Shown: positions 1 through 36,186, numbered from the stretch's first letter. The stretch is DNA of 64,000 bases from Eledone cirrhosa (GCA_964016885.1 OZ024741.1:76074001-76138000); one strand, 5' to 3'. The notes: generated by a model from the sequence alone, not told the origin. Translations and numbers: made by a program.

Positions 1-2596
1 TCTACACACTGTAGTATATATATAGTCAACATCTACACACTGTAGTATATATATAATCAACATCTACACACTGTAGTCTATCTATAGTCAACATCTACAC
101 ACTGTAGTCTACCTATAGTCAACATCTACACACTGTAGTCTATATATAGTTAACATCTACACTCTGTAGTATATATATAGTCAACATCTACACACTGTAG
201 TCTATATATAGTCAACATCTACACACTGTAGTCTATATATAGTCAACATCTACACACTGTAGTCTATATATAGTTAACATCTACACACAGTAGTCTATAT
301 ATAGTTAACATCTACACATTGTAGTATATATATAGTCAACATCTACACACTGTAGTCTATATATAGTTAACATCTACACTCTGTAGTATATATATAGTTA
401 ACATCTACACACAGTAGTCTATATATAGTCAACATCTACACACTGTAGTCTATATATAGTCAACATCTACACACTGTAGTATATATATAGTCAACATCTA
501 CACACTGTAGTATATATATAATCAACATCTACACACTGTAGTCTATCTATAGTCAACATCTACACACTGTAGTCTATCTATAGTCAACATCTACACACTG
601 TAGTCTATATATAGTTAACATCTACACTCTGTAGTATATATATAGTCAACATCTACACACTGTAGTCTATATATAGTCAACATCTACACACTGTAGTCTA
701 TATATAGTCAACATCTACACACTGTAGTCTATATATAGTTAACATCTACACACAGTAGTCTATATATAGTTAACATCTACACATTGTAGTATATATATAG
801 TCAACATCTACACACTGTAGTCTATATATAGTTAACATCTACACTCTGTAGTATATATATAGTTAACATCTACACACAGTAGTCTATATATAGTCAACAT
901 CTACACACTGTAGTCTATATATAGTCAACATCTACACACTGTAGTCTATATATAGTTAACATCTACACACTGTAGTCTATATATAGTCAACATCTACACA
1001 CTGTAGTATATATATAGTCAACATCTACACACTGTAGTATATATATAGTCAACATCTACACACTGTAGTCTATATATAGTTAACATCTACACACTGTAGT
1101 CTATATAGTTAATATCTACACACTGTAGTCTATATATAGTCAACATCTACACACTGTAGTCTATATATAGTCAACATCTACACATTGTAGTCTATTATAT
1201 AGTTAACATCTACACACTGTAGTATATATATATAGTCAACATCTACACACTGTAGTCTATATATAGTTAACATATATACACTGTAATCTATATATAGTTA
1301 ACATCTACACACTGTAGTCTATCTATAGTCAATATCTACATGCTGTAATCTATATATAGTCAACATCTACACACTGTAGTATATATATATAGTCAACATC
1401 TACACATTGTAGTATATATATATAGTCAACATCTACACACTGTAGTTTATATATATAGTCAACATCTACACACTGTAATATATATAGTCAAGATCTACAC
1501 ACTGTAGTCTATCTATAGTCAATATCTACACACTGTAGTATATATATAGTCAACACCTACACATTGTAGTCTATATATAGTCAACATCTACACACTGTAG
1601 TCTATATATAGTCAACATCTACACACTGTAGTCTATCTATAGTTAACATCTACAGACTGTAGTCTATATATAGTCAACATCTACACACTGTAGTCTATAT
1701 ATAGTCAACATCTACACACTGTAGTCTATTATATAGTCAACATCTACACACTGTAGTCTATCTATAGTTAACATCTACAGACTATAGTCTATATATAGTC
1801 AACATCTACACACCGTAGTCTATCTATAGTCAACATCTACACACTGTAGTCTATCTATAGTCATCATCTACACCCTGTAGTCTATATATAGTCAACATCT
1901 ACACACTGTAGTCTATATATAGTCAACACCTACACACTGTAGTCTATATATAGTTAACATCTACACACTGTAGTCTATATATAGTCAACATCTACACACT
2001 GTAGTCTATATATAGTCAACACCTACACACTGTAGTCTATATATAGTCAACATCTACACTCTGTAGTCTATATATAGTCAACATCTACACACTGTAGTCT
2101 ATATATAGTCAACATCTACACACTGTAGTCTATATATATAGTCAACACCTACACACTGTAGTCTATATATAGTCAACATCTACACACTGTAGTCTATATA
2201 TAGTTAACATCTACAGACTGTACTCTATATAGTTAACATCTACACACTGTAGTATATATATATAGTCCATATCTACACACTGTAGTCTATTATATAGTCA
2301 ACATCTACACATTGTAGTCTATTATATAGTCAACATCTACACATTGTAGTATATATATAGTCAACATATACACACTGTAGTATATATATAGTCAATATCT
2401 ACACATTGTAGTCTATTATATAGTCAACATCTACACACTGTAGTATATATATAGTCAACATCTACACATTGTAGTATATATATAGTCAATATCTACACAC
2501 TGTAGTCTATATATAGTCAACATCTACACACTGTAGTCTATTATATAGTCAACATCTACACATTGTAATCTATTATATAGTCAACATCTACACACA
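1..2596. repeat. 31-bp tandem satellite, consensus TCTACACACTGTAGTCTATATATAGTCAACA, running off the left edge
   Basis: About 83 near-identical adjacent units read directly. Each unit has two internal palindromes, CTACA-cac-TGTAG and CTATATATAG. Confidence 0.97.
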
Positions 2597-3218
2597 GGCC
2601 GTAAAACATTGCTTCAAAGAGAATCCCGTAATGTTCCACATTAATCCTTTCTCCGGCAAGAAAATAACCTTAAAATACTTGAAGTTAGCCGGTACTATCT
2701 AGAAATATACTAAAAGTGACACAAAACAGTTTTCGTACGTTTTTCAACACCTAAATAGACTTCTTTCCTGATATAACTGTTTCTTTCTGTTTGGTGTTCA
2801 ATAAGTTTTTTTTCTTTTGTTTTATTCCTTGCCTGTCTTTTCTTTCATTTCTTTCCTTGCATGAATGTTCTATTCGATGTATTAAACTAAGAATATAACA
2901 TTTTGGTTATTCATTTGTTTATACAAATAATTCCAACACCTCACGATCTGTCTAGACAGTTGTCAACATATAAAAGGTCATGGACACCGCCCTTTTCTCC
3001 CCGATAACAAAAATAATTATAAAACACAATACTAGAAACATTCCTTGGTGTGGCAATACCGCTATTTGGGAAGCATTAAACCAAATCCAGCGCTTCGCTT
3101 TTCGTGTGTAAATGCTGCCAACGTATGTTTATCGTACTTCTGAAATAAATAGGTGTGTCATTAAAATACATACATACGTACGTACATACGTGCATAACAT
3201 ACATACATACACACACGA

Positions 3219-3651
3219 AGGCTGCCCCCTCGTTATCGAGTATGGCCATTGCACGTTATACCATTATTAATTATTATTAATTAATTCTATCGTGCAATGC
3301 CTGTGCGTGAAGATATTTTTTAAAGTGAGGAAAGACTGTGCACTGAGCCAATCCCACTCTCTGAGCGACAGTAGCTATAACCCGAAAAAAAGAAAAGATC
3401 AACATCATCGGTAACTACTGAGCCGCAGATTTTATATTGGAGTTATCACAGTTTCCTGAGTTGGCTTCTCTTAGGAGAATGCCCTGACAAAGGATGTGGG
3501 TCCTTCACTCCCAGTGGTTTAACCATGCGGTACATGTGTATATAGATATTTACACACTTTTGGATGGCCGTTGACTCTTATGGGTTCTTCCGCCCTTTGT
3601 CAGGTTTTGTTTTTGTCCTGCAGGGTGTCCAAAATCACCCTCCTCACCAAG
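3219..3651 (-). mobile_element. RTE-derived non-autonomous (bipartite SINE-like) element, subfamily A, partial
   Basis: Shares the 3' terminus TGGCCATACTCGATAACG..GGCAGCC with the RTE fragment ending at 8181. Homologous to 12076-12575. Flanked by (CATA)n. Confidence 0.7.
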
Positions 3652-3686
3652 TAAACATACATACATACATACATACATACATACAT

Positions 3687-3945
3687 AAATGTTTGCATCT
3701 AATAACTGCATATACACATGTACAGATACAAAGCATATACACATGCACACATACAACTCAAAACATACGCATCCACACATACAATAACATCCATATCTAC
3801 ACATGCATGCATACATACATATCTACCTAGTTGATGTTGTGTAAATTCCAATGAGAGAGTCTTGTGTCTATGTTAGAAACCGACTCTCTCTCTATTGGTA
3901 AAACTTTGTGAAATTATAAAACCAGAAGAACATACATACATACAT
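3687..3945 (+). repeat. Direct repeat, copy 1 (copy 2 at 9001-9257; partial inverted relative at about 13803-13925)
   Basis: Near-identical sequence from TTGCATCTAATAACTGC to AAACCAGAAGAACATAC at both places. Confidence 0.92.
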
Positions 3946-6900
3946 AAAATGGCGACCGTTGTGGTCAGTGTCCGATAATCGGACGTGTGTAATTACGGCT
4001 TACATGAAGGCAACATACCATATATTGGAAAAAGTTGAGCTACATTACGCGGTAAGATTACATACAATAATTCTACATAAGTGTTTGAACTGTAAGTGTG
4101 TTGTAAAACACCTATTTATATGAACGATACATACACTTATGATATATGAACGATACATACACTTTAACATATAAATGCAACGTTGTTATATTACATTTAT
4201 AAAGAAATATACAAGTAACGTTTTCGATTCAGAAACAAAAATATAAGTGTTTGAACTGTGAATATGTTGTGAATAGGTTGTAGAACACCTATTTATATGA
4301 GTGATACATAAACTTTAACATATAAATACAGCGTTGTTATATTATATTACATTCATAAAGGAATATACTAAGTAACGGTTCTTTTTGTTGTCGATTCAAA
4401 CGATTCAAGAACAACGTTTAAAACACAGTTGTAGAATTAAAAACTAACTGAAAAGAAATATTACCCAAGCTGTGAATAACTTTAAATTTGATTCTGACAG
4501 AACTTTGTCGTAACTTTTAAAGAAGATCATCGACTATTTTGAAAAATAAATACGAAATATTAGTGAATAGACGAACTCATCATGGCAAAAAGTACAAGTC
4601 TCCTTCGACCAAATCGCAATTACAACCGTTGTACACAGTGGAGCTACGAGCTTAACAAAGTATTATATGAAGCATACAAACAATCTGAACCCCAAAAGTT
4701 CGGTTTTATGCAAAGGCTAAAAACTTTATGGAACTCCAAACACCCAGAATTAGACTTTTCTCCAAAACATTTAAATGAACAGGCAAAACGTATCATTAGA
4801 TGTAAATTGATACATCTAACGGAATTGAGTGATACTACAAATACAGCCCTTGTAGACAACCACCCCACCTCCACTGACAGACAAAGAGAATGGCCAGCTA
4901 AATCTAACAGTGAACAACTCATCAACAATTTTGCTGAAATCCATCCCACTTCCACTGAAGAACAGCGAGAAAGGTCAGCTGACTCTAGTAGTAATTGTCA
5001 CCGCATCAACAACGAGGCTGAAATTCATGACTCTACTGAACAAACAGAGCACCAAAAACTTGTGGGCTCCCTACAAGTGATATGGAACGATATGTTTCAA
5101 GAGATACACAGCCTTAATGTGAGTGACAGACCATACAACACGAGAGTCAGTAAAGAACCCACTAAATTGGAATTGGAAGCGGTGAACGAAATAGCTGGCA
5201 GTTATCTGAAGGCTATACGATCTAAAGGTGTAGAAACGACATTTGAAACGCTTAATGTTTTGTTATATGTTTCAGCTGTCACATTGCTATCATATAACAC
5301 ACATCTAAAACCACGCAATCAAGATACAAGCAGAAAGCCTGAACCAGCGTGGATGCGAAATTTAAAATCCAAAATGTTGTCCCTGAGACGAAGTATCTCA
5401 CACATCGCAGTCGTTATGAAATGCAACATAGAGAGCAACCTCACACGACACCAGGAAGACCTAAAGAAAAAGTTAGAGACGATTTGGAGATACAAAATTT
5501 AAAACTTTGAACTCCAAATTACACCAGTTGAAACAACAACTCACAGCTACAACAGAAAGACTGAAATATAAGTCAACAGCACATAAACGACAAGTGCTAA
5601 ATAGATTGTTTGCCAGAGATCCTAAATCAGTTTATCGCAGCTTCGGTGGCAAAAGCTCAATCTCTGTAAATGACACCCCTTCAAAAGAACAGGTTGAGAG
5701 CTACTGGAGATCTGTATGGGAAACGGATGACGGATTCAACAGACAAGCTAATTGGCTAAAAGAACTGGAACAGGACTACTGCCAACATGTCCAGACAAAA
5801 CAATATGACATAGATGGGTCAATACTGGAAACAGCTCTACAGAAAATGTCGAATAGGAAATCACCAGGCCCAGACCTCATTACAGGATACTGGTTGAAGA
5901 ATTTCACTTTCGATCGGCAAGATCTCATACGGCTGTTTACAGAAACCATTAAGGGCACACAAGAACTGCCCAGATGGTTATCAACTGCCTCTACTCTCCT
6001 CATTCCCCAAAATAGCCAAACCACCCTTGCTAAAAATTACCGCCCAATTGCCTGCCAAAACATCATGTATAAATTATATACTGGGTGCCTTAACCTGTTC
6101 TTACAGGATCACTGTGCTACCAACAACATCATAACACCTGAGCAAGCTGGTGGAAAGAGGGAGGTGTGGGGTTGCATAGATCACCTACTAACTAACAAAA
6201 TGATTCAGGAAAGAACAACAAAGAATCGCAGAAACATGACTGTCGTGTGGCTGGACTATCAAAAAGCATTTGATAGTGTACCTCATGGGTGGAATGTTAA
6301 GGCTTTGCAGTTAGCTAAAGTCCCACAACCATTGGTAGCTGCTGTTGAACGCCTGACCAAGAACTGGTACACCAGTTTGATCCTTAGAGGTGAGAAGGAG
6401 CAGGTTAAGACTGATAAGATACATTACCAGAAGGGCATCTTTCAGAGTGATAGCTTGTCAGTGCTACTCTTCGTTCTCTCACTGAATCCACTATCTTACC
6501 TACTCAAGAAACAAGGTGGACAAAGAAGTGGGCCCAGAAGTATCTCCCATCTTTTCTTTGTTGATGACCTGAAGTTGTATGGGCCAAATATCAATGACAT
6601 CAAGAAACAATTGGACCTCATTACACAATTTTCAACCGACATCAAAATGAAATTTGGTGAGTCCAAGTGTGCATATTTGGCAGTAAAACGTGGAAGAGCT
6701 GTGCCCTCCTCTAGAAATCTAGAGATGAACGGCCTGACAATACAACCTCTGCAGTCAGGTGACAACTACAGATATCTTGGACAGGATGAGAATGTCAGAT
6801 ATGATGGACCCATAAATAAGGAGAGAACCAGAACTGAATACCTCAGAAGAGTAAAGAAAATATGGTCATCAGAACTGTCAGCATACAACAAATACATTGC

Positions 6901-8170
6901 CCACAATACTTATGCTGTGCCAATTCTAACGCCAACATTTGGCCTACTGAACTGGTCATTGCAAGAACTAAGTGAGATGGATGTTAGAACTCGAAAACTT
7001 CTCAGTGTTACTGGGAACTTTAACATCAATGGTGATATGGATAGGCTATAATTCTCACGCAAGGAAGGTGGCCGGGGTCTAAAATCAATATTAACAACAT
7101 ATGAGACCCGGATAGTAACACTGAAGCAACACCTTCAACAGAGGAAAAAGGTTGGCAACCATCTTGCCCAGGTTTATGACCATGAAAAAAGAAATATCAT
7201 TAGAATAGCGACTGATCTGGAGGAGAGATATGGAATAAAGCCTGATATAAATCTCTCACCCAGAGAAATCGGAAGATCCTATTCAATGTTCAAACAAGAT
7301 AAAAAAATTGACCAATTTACAGAAAAAGTTGTGCATGGATACTTGAGGCGTAAAACACAGACCATAGAGGGGATAAACCACTCAAAAAGCCTGGCATGGA
7401 GTTCCGACAAGTTTATGACATCACACCTTGAGGGATATCTCTATGCAATACAGGAACAAGAACTCCCTACCAAATATCTGCTGCACAAAAGAGTAGGGCC
7501 AGCAGCTGACAATAAATGTAGGCTATGTAAAACAAAGATCGAGGATGTAAGCCACATTGTTGCCAGCTGCGAAAGAATGTCATCTCGCTACTACCTCCCC
7601 ATGAGACACGATGGGATAGCTAGAACCATCTGGAACGCACTTCGGAAAACAAAATTAACAACAAACGAGGAAGAATATATTGAGACAGATGGCACTAAGG
7701 AGTACTGGTGGAACCTGAATATAAAAACTGCCACCAAATTAAAGCACAACCGGCCTGATATTGTAGTTTGGGACCACACATTGAAAACGTGTTCTGTTGT
7801 GGAGATCAGCTGCCCACTTGATGTAAACGTTGTCAGAAAAATACAGGAGAAGGAGGACATCTACGGACCATTGATGAGGAGTTTACAAATCCAGTATCCA
7901 AGATACACCTTTAGCTTCATACCCATCATTATTGGTGCTACGGGTTATATACCAACCCGCTTGAACCAAAGTATGACTGAACTTGGATTTGCGGACAAAA
8001 AGCGCAGCTCCCTAATTCATAGTCTACAAATGGCTGCGATAGCTGGCACCTTCAAAATTTGCAAAACATTCTTGCGATTCAAGGGATGACAATTTCTTTT
8101 CTTTTACAACCTTGCCACCAGGAAGGTGGCCGGTCAAAAAAATATACTCGAAATTAAGAGAAAGAGAAAA
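3946..8170 (+). mobile_element. Near full-length R4/Dong-clade non-LTR retrotransposon (RT plus restriction-like endonuclease)
   Basis: 5' UTR with an internal duplication (about 4077-4225 and 4243-4378), a single long ORF, an about 80-bp 3' UTR, and (CATA)n at both junctions. Confidence 0.9.
4582..8089 (+). pseudogene. R4/Dong ORF (about 1170 aa) with one frameshift (about 5475) and one in-frame TAA (7049-7051)
   Basis: R4-type N-terminus (W..ELN..LY.AY..S.P...GF..RL..LW). RT motifs YRPIAC, EQAG, WLDYQKAFDSVPH, GIFQSDSLS, FVDDLKLY, YRYLG, then DRL*FSRKEGGRGL read through the stop. CCHC knuckle CRLC..EDVSHIVASC, RHD motif, and PD-(D/E)xK endonuclease NRPDIV..VVEISCP. Confidence 0.92.
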
Positions 8171-8180
8171 CATACATACA

Positions 8181-8966
8181 TGATGGCTGCCCCCACGTTA
8201 TCGAGTATGGCCATTGCACGAGGAAAAAAAAAAAATAATAAAATAAAAAATAAATAAATAAAATAAAATAAAAAATATATATATATATACACACACACAC
8301 ACATTAATAACAATAATAATAATAATAATAATAACAACAATAATAATAACGACAACAACAATAATAATATACATATACATATATATACACACACACACGC
8401 ACACACATAAGCATATATATACACACATGCACACACACGATAGCAACTAACAGCGCTGCGATCGAATGTGGCTTTTTAGCCCAGCCAATGATCTAAAATG
8501 TCTTGCACAGAGTCGGCAACCAAAACATTCACTGGGAATAGTCGGCTGTGGTTGGAGTTTGTGTACTTTTGCATGTCGCTTGAGTCCTCCTGCTGATTTA
8601 CATTCTCTACCACATGTTTGGCAAGCATGATGAGTAGCATCTCCAACAGCAGCCTGGTAGTCAACCACTGGTCTTACTTTATGACTGCGAAGATGACTTT
8701 CGAGTCCAGCTTTGCTTAGGCAGAGTCTCGCACAGACGCTGCATGTCAGCACCATAGGAGGACCCTCGCCGTCTGGAAGTGCAACAGCAATGCCCTTCCT
8801 CACATCCCGCTTTACTTTCTCGTATGCGATTCGAGATGCCTCAAAGGCAACTTTTCCCTCATATACAGTCTTTCTCCATTTATTACGATCAGCAGCAATA
8901 TTTTCCCATGTATCAGCAGAGATGTTAGCGTCTTTCAGAGAGGCTTTCAAGGAATCCTTATACCTC
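8181..8966 (-). mobile_element. 5'-truncated RTE-clade LINE 3' end with three C-terminal C2H2-type zinc fingers and a microsatellite-expanded 3' UTR
   Basis: KRYKDSLKASLK..WE..AADR.KWR is typical of RTE C-termini. Fingers: CSVC..LESHLRSH, CQTC..LKRHAKVH, CRLC..LKSHIRS. Stop at 8447-8449. Terminal motif TGGCCATACTCGATAACGTGGGGGCAGCCATC followed by (TATG)n. Confidence 0.85.
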
Positions 8967-9000
8967 TTACATACATACATACATACATAAAACATTCCAA

Positions 9001-9257
9001 AAATGTTGCATCTAATAACTGCATATACACATGTACAGATACAAAGCATATACACATGCACACATACAACTCAAAACATACGCATCCACACATACAATAA
9101 CATCCATATCTACACATGCATGCATACATACATATCTACCTAGTTGATGTTGTGTAAATTCCAATGAGAGAGTCTTGTGTCTATGTTAGAAACCGTCTCT
9201 CTCTCTATTGGTAAAACTTTGTGAAATTATAAAACCAGAAGAACATACATACATACA
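9001..9257 (+). repeat. Direct repeat, copy 2 of 3687-3945
   Basis: Only a few differences from copy 1 visible by eye. Confidence 0.92.
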
Positions 9258-9304
9258 TACATACATACATACATACATACATACATACATACATACATAC
9301 ATAC

Positions 9305-9914
9305 ATGGTGGCTGCCATCTCGTTTTCGAGTACGGCCACTACTTTATATCCATGTAGGAGAACCCCTACCGATGCGCTGAACGAGTGTGACTTTTTAGTC
9401 CAGCCAGCGACTTGAAAACTCTGGTACAAACACTACACTTGTGACAATTATTGACACATAGTGCTGGGCCCATGGTACCATGTGATGACAAGTGCAGAGA
9501 GATCTCCAGATATAAAGCAATGCCTGTGCCGTGAAGCTTTTATAGTGAGCAAAGGCACTGCACAAAGCCAGTCCCACTCTCTTAACCAAGATGATATTTA
9601 CCAAAAAGAAGAACAAGTCAACATCATTGGATACCATCAGGGTTGCAGGTGTTATATCAGAGTTTTCCTTCTCCTAGAATTCTGCCTTGACAAAGGCTAA
9701 GGGGTCATCTCTCCCAGTGATTTTAGATGGCCATTGACTCTTAAGAGCTCCTTTTCCCTTTGACAGGTTTTGTTTTTAGTCCTGCAGGATGTCCAAAGTC
9801 ACCCTCCTCATCAAGAAACCTTGGTGGGGTTGCCAGTTTAGTCGCCAACGACCCGACCATGGGACAGGTTGTACTGGGATACATGTTACCAGTAGCACCA
9901 ACTGGTGACCTGAC
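9305..9914 (-). mobile_element. Full-length (about 610 bp) RTE-derived non-autonomous element, subfamily B
   Basis: Highly similar to 51690-52296 and 38238-38638. Contains the RTE 5'UTR-like motif CTAGGAGAAGGAAAACTCTGA and an RTE-like 3' terminus. (CATA)n on both sides. No ORF with recognisable motifs. Confidence 0.8.
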
Positions 9915-10146
9915 ACAACATACATACATACATACATACATACATACATACATACATACATACATACATACATACATACATACGTAGCGATAGAATTTAT
10001 TTTGATGAAGCTCGAGAGATCAGTTCTCTTGTGGATGACTGAAGTGAAGTAAACCTTTATATATAAAGTAAATCATTTATTCTTGTTATTTCATCTAACA
10101 ATCATGTTAATCATCCAACTACAACTACTAATACCCTTCGTTAAAT

Positions 10147-10163
10147 TGGTGAACCCGACGTGA
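10147..10163 (+). promoter_or_regulatory. Primer-binding site complementary to the tRNA-Trp 3' end
   Basis: TGGTGAACCCGACGTGA, one mismatch from the usual Trp PBS TGGTGACCCCGACGTGA, 1 nt after the LTR end. Confidence 0.8.
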
Positions 10164-10691
10164 ATAATAAATTAAAAAAAAAAGAAAATACGAAGTGGTA
10201 TTTTAAAAACAGAAAACAACACGCAAACTTTTTTTCAACATGGCCAACATCTACAACCTTCTCAGCAATATATAATTACCAAGCTTCTCATCTATATGGT
10301 GCGATATGATAAAACTTCACGTTTTCAGATTATTCACCAAACTTCCATTCTACGGAATATTTACAGTGACTTCGCTTTTATGTTTCGATTCATTACCAAA
10401 CACTTTACCACGTACTTCGTAATCTCCAACAACAACAACAACAGACAATACTACTAGCTTCCTAGCAAGAAAACGATCACATAAAGAAGAGAAAACTGAA
10501 CTTTTTGTAAAGAACAATTATATAAATATAAAAAAAAAATTTTTTACAGGTTATATATGAACGTTCATTTTTTTTTTTTTTTTACTGTATTATATGCCTG
10601 CATCAAACACACATCATTTTCTTTGTCACACACCAACATGTTTTTGTCTATGGTATATTCTGAATTCGGTTAGGTCTCTGCGAGATCACTT

Positions 10692-11026
10692 TTCAACTGA
10701 TCGAGGTACGGCAACAGCTATCAAACACATGAGAAACAACCCATGGGGACTACACGCCTGGACTCACTCAGGCACGCAACTCAAAATTGCACACACTCAT
10801 GTCATAGCGTAAACCTCGACTCACTGGAAAAGCAACTTACGTATGATAATACATTGAGATTCAACGGGTCGAGGTTCGGCAACAGCTATTAAACACATGA
10901 TAAACAACCCACGGGCACTACACGCCTGAACTCACTCAGGCACGCAATTCAAAATTGACCACACTCATGTCATAGCGTAAACCTCGACTCACTGGAAGAG
11001 AATCTTACGTATGATGATACATCGAG
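10692..11026 (+). repeat. Two-copy tandem repeat (about 168 bp) inside the LTR element
   Basis: TCGAGGT.CGGCAACAGCTAT...ACGTATGAT.ATACAT occurs twice. Confidence 0.88.
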
Positions 11027-12075
11027 AGAAATAGTCCTGTGTTATCATATCGTAATCCGATACCGTAACCCCAACGTTCAGCCATCCATACACAACAGTT
11101 CGAAATACATGATCACAACTTTGTATATTTACAGTTTCTTCTAAATGTTACACACACACATACATACACAGTTATACGATTATTTTTTTCTCTCTCCTAA
11201 TTTCTCTGCACTCGAAATGCGGGCTTAGAACTCACATTTTGTGTGTTTTGGGACACGCTTCTGGAATCAGATTTCGCTACCCCTTTTATAATCGATCGTT
11301 GCTCCTCCATCGATCTGAGTAGGGAACTAATGTAGCGAAATCTGTCCACGCCTTGAACCTTAGGTGATACGTAAAGGTCAAACTCTAGGCCACCACCCTT
11401 TTGGTGTGAACAGGTTCATGCGTGGGCTATCCCCTTAAGGTGGGAGACAGAAAGCGACAGGTGTATAAAGCCTATATTTTCCCACCTTAAAAACAGAGAG
11501 ATCGGAGCATTACGCTAGCAATAAGCTATCTATGTAAAGATTCACCGCTACCTTCAGGCCGCAGAGGTCTACAGACCTTTACTCGCTCTCTCTCTCTCTC
11601 TTGGTCGCAGACTACACCAGCCTCATGAATCAACAACAAAATAACATTGTCAACCTTCGCAACTCGTGGTAACTTGTTTATTGTTCTTTTTGACTGAAGT
11701 GAAGTAAACCTTTATATATAAAGTAAATCATTTATTCTTGTTATTTCATCTAACAACCATGTTAATCCATCCAACTACAACTACTAATACCCTTCGTTAA
11801 ACTAGAGCAACTCCGTATGATGTTTGTCCTTCCGAGAAACGAGAGCAGAATGTCCTTAAGAAAATCTTATTTCCTATAAGCTGGAACTGACCTCAGTTTC
11901 TCACGACTAAGTTGCTTCAGAGATAAAGAAAAAATGAACATCGTGTTGTCCAGGGTCAGTGTAGTGGAGACCTGACCTAATTTGTTGAGAGTTCAACTTA
12001 CTGCTATACATACATACATACATACATACATACATACATACATACATACATACATACATACATACATACATACAT

Positions 12076-29750: not shown

Positions 29751-31679
29751 GCACTTTATTTTATCTGTAAAAAAATATGGATATGCAGAGATATCCTCAA
29801 TAAATCTAAATTATAAAAACTATACAACCTTTCTGTCTGTTTGGTATACACATGCTACAATCTGTCAAAACCGTTCCAATTTTTTCATAGAATTCATGGA
29901 ACACAAATGTAAGACAAAAAAGGTGTGCCAAATGTAAAACATTCTCTGTCAACAGTGTTATTTGTCTGACTCTCCATTTATCTCTGATTACTTATTCCAC
30001 CTGTCAAACAATGGGCTATGTACTAGTTAGTTGATGATGATAATAATTCACTTTTATTTTCTATCACATAAAGTATAAACCTCTTTCACAAAACAATGGT
30101 GGAATAGTTCAATGTAGTGAAACAGCACTCATCCTTCTAAAGTAAAGCTTTGAAATGGACAGTATGTTTTGCATAGAGAGTTTATACCTTTAGGATTTGA
30201 ACCGGCCATATCCATCTAGAATTCTCTCGCCTGTTTTTGTTCAAACCAGCTGTATCTGGCCACTCAACAGATGTTATGGTGTTGTTCTCAAAATAGATAT
30301 CAAAATCTCATAGATTCGATATTATATGAGATAATTATGTGATAAAATACAATAATATATATAGAGTAATGTGAATGCCAAAGGGTTATAGAATGTTTAC
30401 AAAATATGGATATACAGAGATAACAATAAATATTTTTCCCTGTTTAGGAAAGGCATAGCTGATAGAAAACTTCTTTTGAGTTCTACCATATATAGCCAAT
30501 AAAGCCAGTACAAAATGGTAAATAAGTGAAACATCATCTGTTGTGAGGTTTGCTACATATCTATCCTGAAAAACAGGGCATATGAGAGGGGGGGGGGTCC
30601 AGCCAGTACTTTGTTCCAGGGCCCAAGAGCTAAGAAGGCCCCACAGTAACCATGCAACATTCATTTCGAGAAAAATCTTTGCCTACTTCAGGCTCCAAAG
30701 GGGTCTTGTAACACCTTGCAAAATTTTTTTTGGAGGCCCTGCTAGAAGATTGAAAGGCAAAGTTGCCTCCAATATCAGTTGAACTCAAAGCATGAAGGGA
30801 CAAAACTATATACTAGTTATTTATCAGGCATTTACCAGTCCTACAATCCATATCTAAATCTTTGCTCCAGTCCACTCAGCTGGAAAAAACAAGTTGTACC
30901 AGTAATTCACACTCATGCTGAATCTCCCTGAGTACTATGTTAAGGGTACATGTGTCTGTCGAATGATCAGCCACTTGTATGTTAATTCCATGAGCAAACA
31001 TTTCTGTTGTTCGAACAATTGGAATACCCATCATTGGAATCAGTGCAGGTTCAACAGACACAATTTATTTCATAAATTTAAGCTCATTTATTCTTATAAA
31101 AATTAATGGGAGCATTTCAGATCATGTAGGACTCTTCTCAGACTCAGTATATTTGAGGCATAAACTCTCTGATTTAAATATTAACGTTTTAATTACTATA
31201 TTTCTATTGAAAGATATTGTCTATTATTTTCAAATTATTTTGAAAATAATCAAGGCTTTGGAGGGATTTAGCTGGTGTTTGAAGCATAACTTAAAAGTTT
31301 TTATAAAGAATTACGATGGGAAGTTTTTAGATAAATGTAAACATTCTAAAATAAGCAGTTTTGTATTGTAGAACCATAAGCAGTTTCAGGTGGCTGGGTA
31401 CCAAATAGGTTAATTCTATAATAGTTGTTATTAAGCCCTCATTGAACAGACTTATGATTAAATGCTTTCCACATCATCAGAATTGTATCCTCCAGTCACT
31501 GAGTGTTTTGGGTCTTAAATATCCTCATCCAGGTGACCTGACAGAGTTGATCAAGCTTCAGCTTGTGCCCAGGAGACATACATACTACTGACCCCACTGG
31601 TCACAACTTTTCAGTCAGAGCCATCTCAATGCCCACTTTGCTGCTTCCATATTGTTGGCTCTTCCCTTGCTCACTGAGG

Positions 31680-32858
31680 ACAGTGCAAACTTTGTACAGA
31701 GGTACTGTCAGTAAAGTCAGGGTAGGAATGGAGTTTAGTGAGGAATTCCAGATACAAGTAGGTGTACATCAGGGTTCTGTCCTCAGCCCGCTCTTGTTCA
31801 TTATAGTTCTCCAAGCCATAACAGAGGAGTTTAAGACTGGCTGTCCATGGGAACTTCCCTATGCTGACGATCTGGTTCTTATAACAGAATCAGTAGAGGA
31901 GCTAGAGAATAAATTCTGGCTATGGAAACAGCAGTTGGCAGCAAAAGGACTGAGAGTGAACCTAGCTAAGACAAAAGTGTTGATGAGTAGATAAGAGGAC
32001 AAAACTCTGATTAAATCAGGGAAATGGCCATGTTCGATATGCAGAAAAGGAACTGGTATAAATTCTATAAAATGCACACAATGCAGATCCTGGGTACACA
32101 AGAGATGTAGCGGGATAGCAGGCAAACTAACAGGTAGGGAGAAATACGTATGCAGTAGATGTACATGGAAATTAGACAGTAGAAGTCGCATTGATAGACA
32201 GATTTTTCAAATGCAGGTGGGTGCTATAGAAGTGGTGGATAGCTTCCGGTACCTAGGAGATCAGATTAGCATGGGAGGAGGGTGTTCCGAGGCCATAGTA
32301 TCTAGGATAAGGACGGGTTGGAAGAAGTTTAGGGAGCTGCTTCCTCTGCTGACGAATAAGGGTTTCTCCCTGTGTACGAAAGGCCGGTTATATGATGCCT
32401 GTGTGAGGAGCGCGATGTTGCATGGTAGTGAGACATGGGCAGCAACTGCAGAGGATATGCGACGGCTGGAGAGAAATGAGGCAAGCATGCTCCGTTGGAT
32501 GTGCAGTGTCAATGTGCGTGAACGACCCAGCATGAATGTGTTGAGAGAGAAACCGTGTCTGAGAGGGATAGAATGTAGTGTACGGGAGAGGAGACTGAGG
32601 TGGTATGGACATGTGATGCGCATGGAGGATGACCGATGGGTGAAGAAGTGCCAGGAAATGCCAGTTGAAGGAAGACGTGGTAGAGGTAGACCACGAAAAA
32701 CATGGGTGGAGGTGGTGAGAACAGACCTCAGATCGCTGAAGCTCACAGTGGAGATGATGAAGGACCATGACAAGTGGAGAGATGCTGTGCTGAATAAGAC
32801 CCGTCCCACCCTTGCAAGCAGGGAAGAGCAGACGTAAAATGATGATGATGATGATGAT
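31680..32858 (+). mobile_element. 5'-truncated RTE LINE (RT C-half, PHD-like finger, C-terminus), disrupted, with (GAT)n tail
   Basis: GVHQGSVLSPLLF, PYADDLV, FRYLG, RRLRWYGHV, GRPRKTW. Tail GATGATGAT at 32840-32858. Confidence 0.92.
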
Positions 32859-32957
32859 ATATATATAAATCAGGATAGAACCGGTTTGAAACTAGTTAGA
32901 TAATTACTCAACAAAGTACTCGATACTTGGGGTAGTAGAGTATGACTATATATATAT

Positions 32958-33126
32958 AATCAGTTACAACAGTGACATATACAGGTACTCAAGTTTTGTT
33001 GGGTTGTTTATCCCAACTCATTCAGCCTATTATAATAAACAAAACAAAACCAAAATGGCTGAATGAGTTGGGATAAACAACTCAACAAAACTTGAGTACC
33101 TGTATATGTCACTGTTGTAACTGATT
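32958..33126. repeat. Foldback (70-bp arms, 29-bp spacer) with a degenerate hammerhead core
   Basis: 32958-33027 is the reverse complement of 33057-33126 with about one mismatch. Confidence 0.9.
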
Positions 33127-33197
33127 ACACATAACTCTAAACATTTGGATATATATACCAAGTTTGTACTACAATATATGAGAGAAAAACCTTTTGT

Positions 33198-33900
33198 ATT
33201 CAGAGAGCTACTCCCATTACTGACTATAAAAGGTTTTTCTCTCAAAATGAAAGGCAGACTTTATGATGCACATATACGAACAACAATGTTGCATTGCAGC
33301 GAGACCTGGGTACAGTGTGCAGAGGACCTGCGAAGATTGGAAAGAAATGAAGCTTCCATGCTTCGCTGGATGTGCAATAGCAATATACGTAAACGGCAAA
33401 GTATAAATACACTGTGTGAGAAATTAGGCATAAGAGGAATCAGTTGTTGCATGCAGGAGAGGAGATTGTGTTGGTATGGACATGTGATGCGTATAAAGTA
33501 TGACAGCTGTATAATAAGGTGCAGGGCGCTTAAAGTCGATGGAAACCGTGGTGTGGGCAGGCTTAGGAAGACTTGGGATAAGGTAATAAAAGCTGACCTT
33601 GCACAATTACACCCCTCAAAGGCAATGACTCAGGACTGTGACCTCTGGTGCTATGCAGTTTTACGGAAGACCTACCCTCTATTGTTCTCGAGATGAGGCT
33701 TATACCTGGTAGGCAACACCTTCCTCAACCTGCTATCCTCTCTCATTCTTCTCCCTTAGCGGTAACCATACTTCCCCTACTACCCTGTTCACATTTTCCC
33801 CCCCAAGCCCCTCCACCCTCCCTAGTCCCCACTGTGTTGTGTCAGTGACACAACAAAGGTGCCCAGTCCCCACTGTAAAGGTGGGATCTAGCCATTGGGG
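33198..33900 (+). mobile_element. RTE 3' fragment (ORF end plus partial 3' UTR)
   Basis: FRELLPLL..KGRLYDA..LERNEASMLRWMC..WYGHVMR..RKTW. Confidence 0.85.
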
Positions 33901-33921: not shown

Positions 33922-36186
33922 ATCATCATCATCATCATCATCAACGTTTAACGTCCGTGTTCCACGCTTGCATGGGTTTGGACGGGGGTAGTCCCACTTG
34001 AGGCAAGAGTGATTGTCTTGCTCGCATAGGACTGTCTGGCAGGTTTTCTACAGTTGGATGCCCTTCCTAACACCAACCACATTTACAGTGTGGGTCTGGG
34101 AGGTTTTTACCGTGTTGCCTACACGGCCACATTACAGCGTGGACTGTGTGTTTTTTTGTCGTGACACCTACACGATCTCATTTGTTTCGGCCTCGATGGC
34201 GCGGCACCAACATAACTTTACATAGAACGGGGTGGTGTGGATCGGGTGGGGGTGGTGGGACGGGGTGTATTTGTTAGAGATGCCTACTGGCTGGAGTAGG
34301 TTTTACTATATATTTAGGTAAGGCGGGTCTTCTCTGTTACTGAGTACCGCCAAAGGTCTCGGTCCAGTGACATTGTCTTGGAGAGGTGTAAGTGTGTGAT
34401 GTCGGAGTTTATCAGCTCGTCCCAGGTTTTTCTAGGTCTGCCTATTCCGTGACTACCGTCTATCTTTATTGCCCTGCACTTTGTTATACAGCTATCGACT
34501 TTCATGCGCATCACGTGTCCATACCAACGTAGCCTTCTCTCGAGTAAACAACATCTGATCCCTCTTATCTCTAATTTATTCCTTAGTTCGTTTATGCTTT
34601 GCCGTTCACGTATATTACTGTTACACATCCAGCGGAGCATGCAAGCTTCGTTCCTCTCTAGTCTGCGTATATCCTCTGCACACAATGCCCAGGTCTCACT
34701 GCCATGCAGCATTGCTGTTCGTATGCAGGCATCGTACAACCTGCCTTTCATTTTTAGTGAGAACCCTTTAGCAGCTAATAGTGGTATAAGCTCTCTGAAC
34801 TTTTTCCAACCAGTTCTGACTCTAGCTACAGTACTTTCAGAGCACCCTCCCCCACTGCTGATTTTATCGCCCAGGTAACGGAAGCTGTCCACTATTTCTA
34901 TAGAACCCTCTGCGCAATTGAAAGAGCTAGTAGTTTGTGGGCACTTGCTGCTACTTATTGCACCAGAGCACCGGCCACATGTAAAATCTATGTTCTTAGT
35001 TAGCCTACCTGTGATCCCACTACATCTTTTATGCACCCATACTTTGCATTTAGGACATAAAATGGAGTTTCTACCTACGCCTTTCCTACACACCGAGCAC
35101 GACCATTTCCCAGAAGGGACCGCCGCCTTGTTTTCTTTCCTACAAACTAGTACTTTGGTCTTAGCCAGGTTAATTTTAAGTCCTTTTGACTCTAGGCCGT
35201 GCTTCCATGTTTGGAATTTCTTCTCTAGCTCGGCCATTGATTCCGCTATGAGTGTCAGGTCGTCTGCGTATAGGAGTTCCCATGGGCAGCCTGTCTTGAA
35301 CTCCTCTGTTATGGCCTGAAGGGCAATAATAAATAGTAGTGGACTGAGAACAGAGCCCTGATGGACGCCGACTTTTACGCTAAACTCTTCACTATATTCG
35401 TTGTTAATTCTAACCTTGCTGACTGTTTCTTTATACATGGCTTGTATAGCCCTCACAAGCCATTCGTCAACGCCTAGTTTTCTAAGAGCCCACCAGATAA
35501 TGGAGCGGGGGACTCTGTCGAAGGCTTTCTCCAAGTCGACAAAAGCTAAGTAGAGGGGTTTACCTTTAGCTAGGTACTTCTCTTGTAGTTGTCGTACTAT
35601 GAAAAGAGCGTCTGTGGTACTTTTGCCTGACACAAACCCGAACTGCATTTCATCTAGGTCAATTCTCTCTCTGATTAGTTGCGCTATTACTCTTTCCGTG
35701 ACCTTCATGACCTGGTCGATTAATTTAATGCCTCTATAGTTACTCCTATCTAGGGCGTCTCCTTTACCCTTATAACAGTTAACGATGATGCTGCTATGCC
35801 AGTCCTTCGGAACAACCCCGTTCTGTACGACTTGGTTAACTATGCGGGTGACCATGGTGTGTCCCACCGTGCCAGATGCCTTCAGCATCTCAGCAACTAT
35901 TTCCGAAGGCCCAGCCGCCTTACCAGTCTTCATATCCTTGATTGCCTTACTTATTATACTCCCCTCGACTAACACTGCTGGTCCCTCTATTGGGTCGATA
36001 TGGGGGAGACTGCCTTTCTCCCAATTATTCTCCTCATTTAGAAGCCTTTCATAGTGACACTTCCAAGCTACCTTCTTATCAGCGTCGGTGATGGCAAGTG
36101 TGCCATCGTCGTTTAGTACACACTTCTCCCCGACAATATCACGGTTTTCCTTGACGCATTGCCTAGCAATCCTGAACACCTCACGT
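33922..36186 (-). mobile_element. Young 5'-truncated RTE LINE, (GAT)n tail, flanked by (TA)n
   Basis: Uninterrupted 621-aa frame, about 370-bp 3' UTR, tail at 33922-33942, (TA)n at both junctions. Confidence 0.95.
34314..36179 (-). CDS. RTE reverse transcriptase, 5'-truncated (no APE endonuclease), open frame
   Basis: NYRGIKL, QFGF, FVDLEKAFDRV, GVHQGSVLSPLLF, LLYADD, C4HC3 finger, FRYLG, RLRWYGHV, GRPRKTW. Confidence 0.9.
   Translation of the reverse strand: MFRIARQCVKENRDIVGEKCVLNDDGTLAITDADKKVAWKCHYERLLNEENNWEKGSLPHIDPIEGPAVLVEGSIISKAIKDMKTGKAAGPSEIVAEMLKASGTVGHTMVTRIVNQVVQNGVVPKDWHSSIIVNCYKGKGDALDRSNYRGIKLIDQVMKVTERVIAQLIRERIDLDEMQFGFVSGKSTTDALFIVRQLQEKYLAKGKPLYLAFVDLEKAFDRVPRSIIWWALRKLGVDEWLVRAIQAMYKETVSKVRINNEYSEEFSVKVGVHQGSVLSPLLFIIALQAITEEFKTGCPWELLYADDLTLIAESMAELEKKFQTWKHGLESKGLKINLAKTKVLVCRKENKAAVPSGKWSCSVCRKGVGRNSILCPKCKVWVHKRCSGITGRLTKNIDFTCGRCSGAISSSKCPQTTSSFNCAEGSIEIVDSFRYLGDKISSGGGCSESTVARVRTGWKKFRELIPLLAAKGFSLKMKGRLYDACIRTAMLHGSETWALCAEDIRRLERNEACMLRWMCNSNIRERQSINELRNKLEIRGIRCCLLERRLRWYGHVMRMKVDSCITKCRAIKIDGSHGIGRPRKTWDELINSDITHLHLSKTMSLDRDLWRYSVTEKTRLT

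Follow-up and report, generated by a model that had tools for sequence, protein, structure and literature searches.

A retrotransposon of apparent R4/Dong type in the genome of Eledone cirrhosa lies between two nearly identical copies of a short block, each bordered by (CATA)n tracts. Was the second copy made by the insertion of the element, as a very long target site duplication (TSD), or was the block doubled in some other way? A sequence-only reading of the locus had taken the former view and proposed a TSD of 260-290 bp running from one tract to the next. We find that the repeat is real and that its material was misidentified in that reading. The mechanism lies between unequal exchange, our leading though still tentative explanation, and a long TSD, which we regard with some doubt.

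Layout of the locus

The window is the whole stretch of DNA that was analysed, 64,000 nt on one strand (GCA_964016885.1, OZ024741.1:76074001-76138000), and all coordinates refer to it. On the plus strand the order is S2, CATA tract, block, tract, an element of family A, tract, an RTE-type piece in minus orientation, tract, block, tract and S1. The features are:

3217..3654, probably minus strand: S2, a non-autonomous, 5'-truncated element, left neighbour in the array; its 3' tip is common with the RTE-type piece
3655..3687, plus strand: (CATA)n tract 1
3688..3930, plus strand: left stub of family B, last codons and 3' UTR with hairpin; rare G at 3769
3931..3945, plus strand: (CATA)n tract from the left stub to the 5' end of A
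3946..8170, plus strand: family A, full-length, predicted R4/Dong-like non-LTR retrotransposon; RT, CCHC knuckle, RLE-type motif
8171..8181, plus strand: CATA run, 3' end of A and tail of the RTE-type piece
8182..8968, minus strand: RTE-type fragment, young and 5'-truncated; C2H2 zinc fingers at the ORF end
8969..8988, plus strand: (CATA)n tract ahead of the right stub
8989..9242, plus strand: right stub of family B, about 255 nt; rare G at 9082, private T at 9196
9243..9306, plus strand: (CATA)16, tract 2
9307..9917, probably minus strand: S1, a 610-nt high-copy non-autonomous element kin to S2, right neighbour in the array

The RTE-type piece (787 nt), which carries the putative clade name of the sequence-only reading, sits between two CATA runs. 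The first 39 nt of S2 are 95% identical to the RTE tip, and S2 probably depends on RTE. The region 3166-9983 consists wholly of repeats, and no contig examined spans it.

The block at 3688-3930 is found again at 9001-9242; over the 237 nt that begin with the shared motif, the copies differ at a single position (A at 3883, T at 9196). The near-identical recurrence described in the sequence-only reading is thus confirmed, as are its (CATA)n borders, which are 3655-3687 and 3931-3945 for the left copy and 8969-8988 and 9243-9306 for the right copy. The left stub is about 243 nt long after 5' truncation, and the position of its junction is uncertain by 1-4 nt. The 5' ends of the two copies differ, the left copy having one T more and approximately 12 nt fewer than the right copy. 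It had further been held that removal of the RTE-type piece joins the right copy to A apart from an indel. The piece does lie between CATA runs, but the supposed indel is family-B sequence. The direct repeats adjoin both ends of A only once the 787 nt are removed, and their 5' ends then still differ by those approximately 12 nt.

Identity of the block and targeting of CATA tracts

Judged from its sequence, the block is the 5'-truncated 3' end, comprising the last codons and the 3' UTR, of a second, predicted R4/Dong-like family, which we call B. In a search of the 3.0 Gb genome with the block, 40 of 40 scored matches had 95-100% identity over nearly the whole block. All 30 fetched loci share one 3' end point, followed by CATA-type sequence. 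Leaving aside the window's own, 26 of 28 fetched loci extend upstream into the B ORF, including the 12 nt that the left copy is without. Full-length B is 4,101 nt; the 60 sampled copies range from 257 to 4,101 nt, a variable 5' truncation, and 3 of them are full-length. The window stubs match positions 3864-4101 (left) and 3854-4101 (right) of the 4,101-nt reference. Protein identity between B and A is 53% in the RT part and 52% in the C-terminal part.

An exact 23-nt B motif occurs in 4,231 copies genome-wide, and we place the family at 4,231 copies at least. Searches for truncation within approximately 20 nt of the window stubs gave 227 raw matches, with at least 58 distinct loci among the matches listed. 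From 63 reverse matches we estimate that about 125 of the 4,231 copies (approximately 3%) are truncated in this 20-nt interval. Both 5' junction types of the window stubs are also found at other loci. The 3' UTR of B holds a hairpin (z -3.6), which is weakened by the private change of the right copy.

The block had been read as host target DNA. It is instead a retrotransposon tail and a dispersed high-copy repeat, whose 3' boundary is shared and whose 5' boundary recurs elsewhere. The genome matches and the motif count rule out unique host DNA, and a SINE with fixed ends is ruled out by the extension into an ORF and the variable 5' truncation.

The element between the stubs has a single ORF at approximately 4582-8089, disrupted by a frameshift near 5475 and a stop at 7049-7051. 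A domain search of A gave RVT_1 (E 1.6e-21) and zf-RVT (E 9.9e-6), and no APE was detected by it. The translation contains the motifs C-x2-C-x8-H-x4-C and RPD...E, which we take to be a CCHC knuckle and an RLE-type motif, respectively. The best relatives of solved structure are R2 proteins (E 2e-26), with L1 behind (E 8e-16); the C-terminal part gave no PDB match. We suggest that A is R4/Dong-like, based on its domain layout and microsatellite targeting. The earlier assignment to this group agrees with RT, CCHC, RLE-type motif and CATA target. None of the 120 listed homologues of A carries an R4 or Dong name. Dong and R4 are described as carrying an HDV-like ribozyme at the 5' end (PMC3774820). 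An Rfam search over 2600-12600, which divergent ribozymes would escape, gave 16 weak matches and no ribozyme family.

Candidate ends of A number at least 610 (5') and at least 146 (3') genome-wide. In a set of 261 A and B elements with both flanks, the window's included, CATA-type sequence follows the 3' end in 260 and the 5' junction has a tract in 221. A B copy has its 3' end no more than 200 nt upstream in 7 of 94 A elements. Head-to-tail arrays in (CATA)n tracts are built from A, B, RTE, S1 and S2. Whatever the mechanism at the locus, two families that are young, abundant and specific to (CATA)n are present in this genome. In those parts of the literature covered by our search we found no description of a CATA target.

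Origin, age and doubling of the stubs

The 60 B copies were drawn from contig C1, out of the first 72 listed positions of the motif; where two lay close together the second was dropped, and so was one locus that the set already contained. The left stub is at distance 1 from the right stub, compared with a minimum of 3 and a median of 8 to the sampled copies. Both stubs have G at 3769/9082, where A is found in 57 of 57 informative sampled copies (59 aligned, 2 gaps, 1 broken copy dropped). Genome-wide, the exact motif has G 26 times, including both stubs and 24 others, versus A 2,266 times. In the reads of three other runs, a non-A letter is present at this site in 1.9-2.4%. A role of the G as marker of a young subfamily is unsupported, as six other carriers do not group; they are 3.6% apart mutually and 3.6% from 11 non-carriers. 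Near-consensus copies, with at most 1 substitution, make up 3 of 59 sampled B copies. Since a variant at 1%, truncation in a 3% class and near-consensus age would seldom come together, we infer from this one site that both stubs quite probably descend from one local ancestor.

Over 3,500 nt, the A element carries 15 substitutions that are private to it; the distance to its nearest copies is 35 in 3,497. The private changes predict 2.0 differences between the stubs, versus the 1 observed (P(<=1)=0.40); the distance of A to the majority predicts 4.9 (P=0.04). The RTE-type piece differs from the majority of its 29 nearest copies by 2 substitutions in 573 non-simple sites. With 1 difference versus about 2 expected, the duplication of the stub is about as old as A, and the RTE-type piece is as young as A or younger. 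An RTE-type piece older than A, which would exclude a TSD, is not seen. This timing fits a TSD, and it also fits a duplication shortly before A, or an exchange between alleles after A had inserted.

Our favoured, if tentative, explanation is that the stub was duplicated by unequal exchange between (CATA)n tracts and not by an insertion reaction. In brief, one B stub would have inserted, acquired the G and then been doubled. There are two possible routes. In the first, the stub would be duplicated in tandem, and A and the RTE-type piece would land later in the middle tract. In the second, an allele with A to the right of the stub would cross over with an allele without A. The exchange would join the tract that follows A to the one that precedes the stub, giving stub-A-stub in one step.

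Support comes from the rare G shared by the stubs, their distance of 1, and two surveys. Adjacent duplicates with 4-31 shared rare variants are present at 7 of 235 loci (L119, L126, L171, L196, L275, L183 and L072/L084). Tract-bounded units thus get doubled with nothing between them and exchange at tracts is active here, so that such exchange can mimic a long TSD; some of the most similar of these pairs (L119 and L171) could be assembly errors. For family A, 39 other loci with an intact 5' end were fetched, of which 38 had the 3' end. None of these 38 full-length copies has a non-microsatellite duplication at both junctions, and a long TSD is therefore not repeated at the other insertions of the family surveyed. 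This outcome and the high copy number of the block are two of the results that the sequence-only reading had named as speaking against its proposal.

By rough arithmetic, we put the share of element-bordering tracts with a duplicate on either side at about 1.4%. If elements later inserted there, roughly 2 pairs separated by an element would be expected per 260 elements; one good candidate (L008) and one weak candidate (L253) were seen. On this rough rate estimate, the tandem-first route and a TSD come out about equally probable. Unequal exchange takes the lead through the addition of the between-allele route, which is itself conjectural.

Some observations count against unequal exchange. The stub divergence fits the moment at which A inserted and the RTE-type piece is not older, as a TSD predicts, and at least one real long TSD (L170) is due to family B. 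The 12-nt loss and the extra T need added events, as they do in any model with a common origin. Moreover, neither an allele with a single stub nor one that has both stubs but lacks A was seen among contigs, which break in repeats, or among raw reads, RAD reads from an SbfI-type site near 3617 included, where the left junction 3590-3698 was skipped as repeat. A candidate empty allele from the contig joint 3946-8170 was uninformative, as its 25-nt sides fit many loci.

A true long TSD, which we consider possible but doubtful, would have arisen by A making its bottom-strand nick in tract 1 and its top-strand nick in tract 2. The B stub would thereby be duplicated within approximately 270-290 bp including pieces of tract, and the RTE-type piece would later have entered the copied tract. 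The left copy would have lost its 12 nt at a small hairpin while the strand was single-stranded; the missing bases do fall within a 6-bp stem, though a weak one (z -0.9). The near identity and common G of the stubs fit this explanation, and so do the match of their divergence to the age of A, the RTE-type piece being no older, and the compatible tract lengths. The 260-290 bp TSD of the sequence-only reading finds partial support in that the stubs look like duplicates of the right age, and it is weakened by the 0 of 38 other A copies. Also, the copies do not adjoin A as found.

A duplication reaching beyond the tract was found at 2 of the 261 A and B elements (L170 and L186), both of family B and shorter than 140 bp. 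L170 is a truncated B copy. The last 70 nt of its upstream flank recur unchanged where the downstream S2 begins, 5-7 rare variants are common to both stretches, and its 5' junction lacks a tract. The TSD at L170 is 77-135 bp with tract (up to approximately 65 nt of tract), and the second cut is in non-tract DNA. L170 is clearly a real long TSD made by family B. L186 is likely a TSD of 30-47 bp, again with the second cut outside the tract. These two loci favour a long TSD in principle, but they amount to a clear rate of about 1 in 260 and to lengths shorter than needed here. Two cuts in neighbouring microsatellites, as proposed earlier, find no support, given where the second cut of L170 lies. 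In 124 of the 261 elements there is at most 20 nt of tract downstream, which bounds the TSD at about that length.

The locus L008 (S1-B-S1) has 4 shared rare variants and 24 differences in 607 nt, and 0 of 3,523 background pairs reach 4. It could be a second tract-to-tract case, but tandem duplication and later insertion explain it equally well. Other S1-B-S1 loci (L200, L203, L204 and L253) were rejected as long TSDs, having 0-1 shared rare variants and family-level likeness. Same-family neighbours that flank A (L103, L108, L118 and L119) were rejected for unequal lengths, offsets or 85-94% identity. Among 7 tract-passing matches, three (L183, L093 and L095) reflect noise in the tracts, of which the controls yielded 3-5, and L147/L149 are due to short repeats at the end of B.

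The stubs may also be two separate B insertions with near-equal truncation, an explanation that we find unlikely. B is very abundant and clustered in arrays, approximately 3% of its copies are truncated in the same 20-nt interval, both junction types exist elsewhere, and the different 5' ends would be explained without a deletion. The shared G would have to come from recurrent mutation or from gene conversion over 5.3 kb. Unless conversion is added, the 1% variant, the 3% truncation and the near-consensus age (3 of 59) must coincide. An assembly artefact, with two alleles of one stub placed in tandem, is highly improbable, since all junction types are common in this genome and different elements lie between the copies, even though 3166-9983 is all repeats with no spanning contig.

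Comparison with known elements

Like the Dong/R4 elements (Bombyx Dong, DongAg, DongBg and Ascaris R4), A has a single ORF, RT, CCHC knuckle, RLE-type motif and a microsatellite target. Unlike them, its target is (CATA)n, common to two families at 53% identity. The R9 TSD is a regular feature, made at a fixed rDNA site. A long TSD in the window would resemble R9 in coming from an RLE element; unlike in R9, long duplications are rare here (0 of 38 A copies, 2 of 261 overall). Dong elements are reported to target TAA repeats (PMC3812793), and a TSD of 13 bp is given for R4 (PMC6895275). Young Dong-R4 families have been reported in octopus (PMC13282606, PMC9115989). For R9 of Adineta, a 126-bp TSD is cited (PMC6895275, PMC9977147). 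Dualen-4b_cRei of Chlamydomonas is described with variable TSD-like duplications, more than half of them longer than 50 bp, with a median of 900 bp (PMC9977147). Dualen makes these long duplications routinely and has RLE and APE, whereas no APE was detected in A. A TSD of 270-290 bp would be no record, as the Dualen median is already published. It would add another case to a phenomenon already known, one of note because no APE domain was detected in A.

It is conceivable, though we doubt it, that CATA-targeting R4/Dong-like enzymes sometimes nick the second strand tens to hundreds of bases downstream. The distances between nicks might then be 77-135 bp at L170, approximately 280 bp in the window and perhaps approximately 700 bp at L008, a series we hold equally questionable. 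If true, an RLE-only retrotransposon would copy its neighbours together with their tracts, multiply its own targets and help build arrays. A real long TSD would mean that an RLE-only LINE can cleave the second strand a long way from the first nick and in loose coupling to it, a point relevant to how TPRT gets completed.

Exchange or slippage between microsatellite-bounded repeats is what the seven tandem loci resemble, where tract-bounded elements are doubled. Unlike in a plain tandem exchange, the copies in the window are parted by two later or allelic insertions and so look like a TSD. If unequal exchange is the right explanation, the locus is a warning that recombination can forge a convincing long TSD in microsatellite-targeted arrays.

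Duplicated blocks at other loci

Family B, the second R4/Dong-like family, lies between duplicated blocks at one other locus of the same genome (G000) and possibly at a second:

L170 (contig C1, G000:C1:18875179-18882179), 2322-4102 of the locus: 5'-truncated family-B copy flanked by a target-site duplication (TSD) of 77-135 bp
L008, 120-2425 of the locus: elements in the order S1-B-S1

S1 and S2 are related non-autonomous elements of the same arrays. At L170, the truncated B copy is clearly flanked by a long TSD (77-135 bp), and the second cut is placed within an S2 element, in DNA outside the (CATA)n tract. The S1 pair of L008 differs at 24 positions in 607 nt and has four rare variants in common; a tract-to-tract duplication of approximately 700 bp is possible at this locus. 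Tract-bounded elements are also found as tandem duplicates or triplicates with identical truncation points, at L119, L126, L171, L196, L275, L183, L072/L084 and L063.

The 3' region of family B

The end of the B ORF carries a quasi-palindromic site (window 8989-9010 and B copies) that is unusually variable between copies, with two main forms present in 30 and 26 of 59 copies. The same site falls within a zone of frequent truncation, where 7 of 60 copies are cut off at a point 257-297 nt before the 3' end. Loci L147 and L149, located 112 kb apart, hold B stubs whose 5' junction is identical to that of the left window stub; downstream of these stubs lie short repeats made of the terminal 46 nt or so of B plus tract.

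Element A and the RTE-type piece

The 5' UTR of the full-length element A contains an internal duplication, 75% identical (window 4077-4380). Many full-length A copies have a shorter 5' UTR, lacking approximately 200 nt, and these are associated with a different 3'-end variant, which suggests two A subfamilies. At L032, L047 and L052, short A pieces (either 10-15 nt from its start or an internal stretch of 45 nt) lie in the tract immediately before the 5' junction, a pattern such as template jumps would leave.

The ORF end of the RTE-type piece (window 8450-8968, minus strand) encodes three C2H2 zinc-finger-like motifs. A genome search with this piece gave 908 candidates, the best 40 of which are 99-100% identical.

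Other repeats in the window

Two inverted copies of a 1.6-kb RT-encoding LINE fragment (33931-35537 and 54979-56586) are 99% alike and 19-22 kb apart, with older relatives at 31675-33672. Positions 1-2595, 53606-54975 and 56595-64000 hold a minisatellite whose 31-bp unit occurs 83 times, together with long (TA)n-based satellites.
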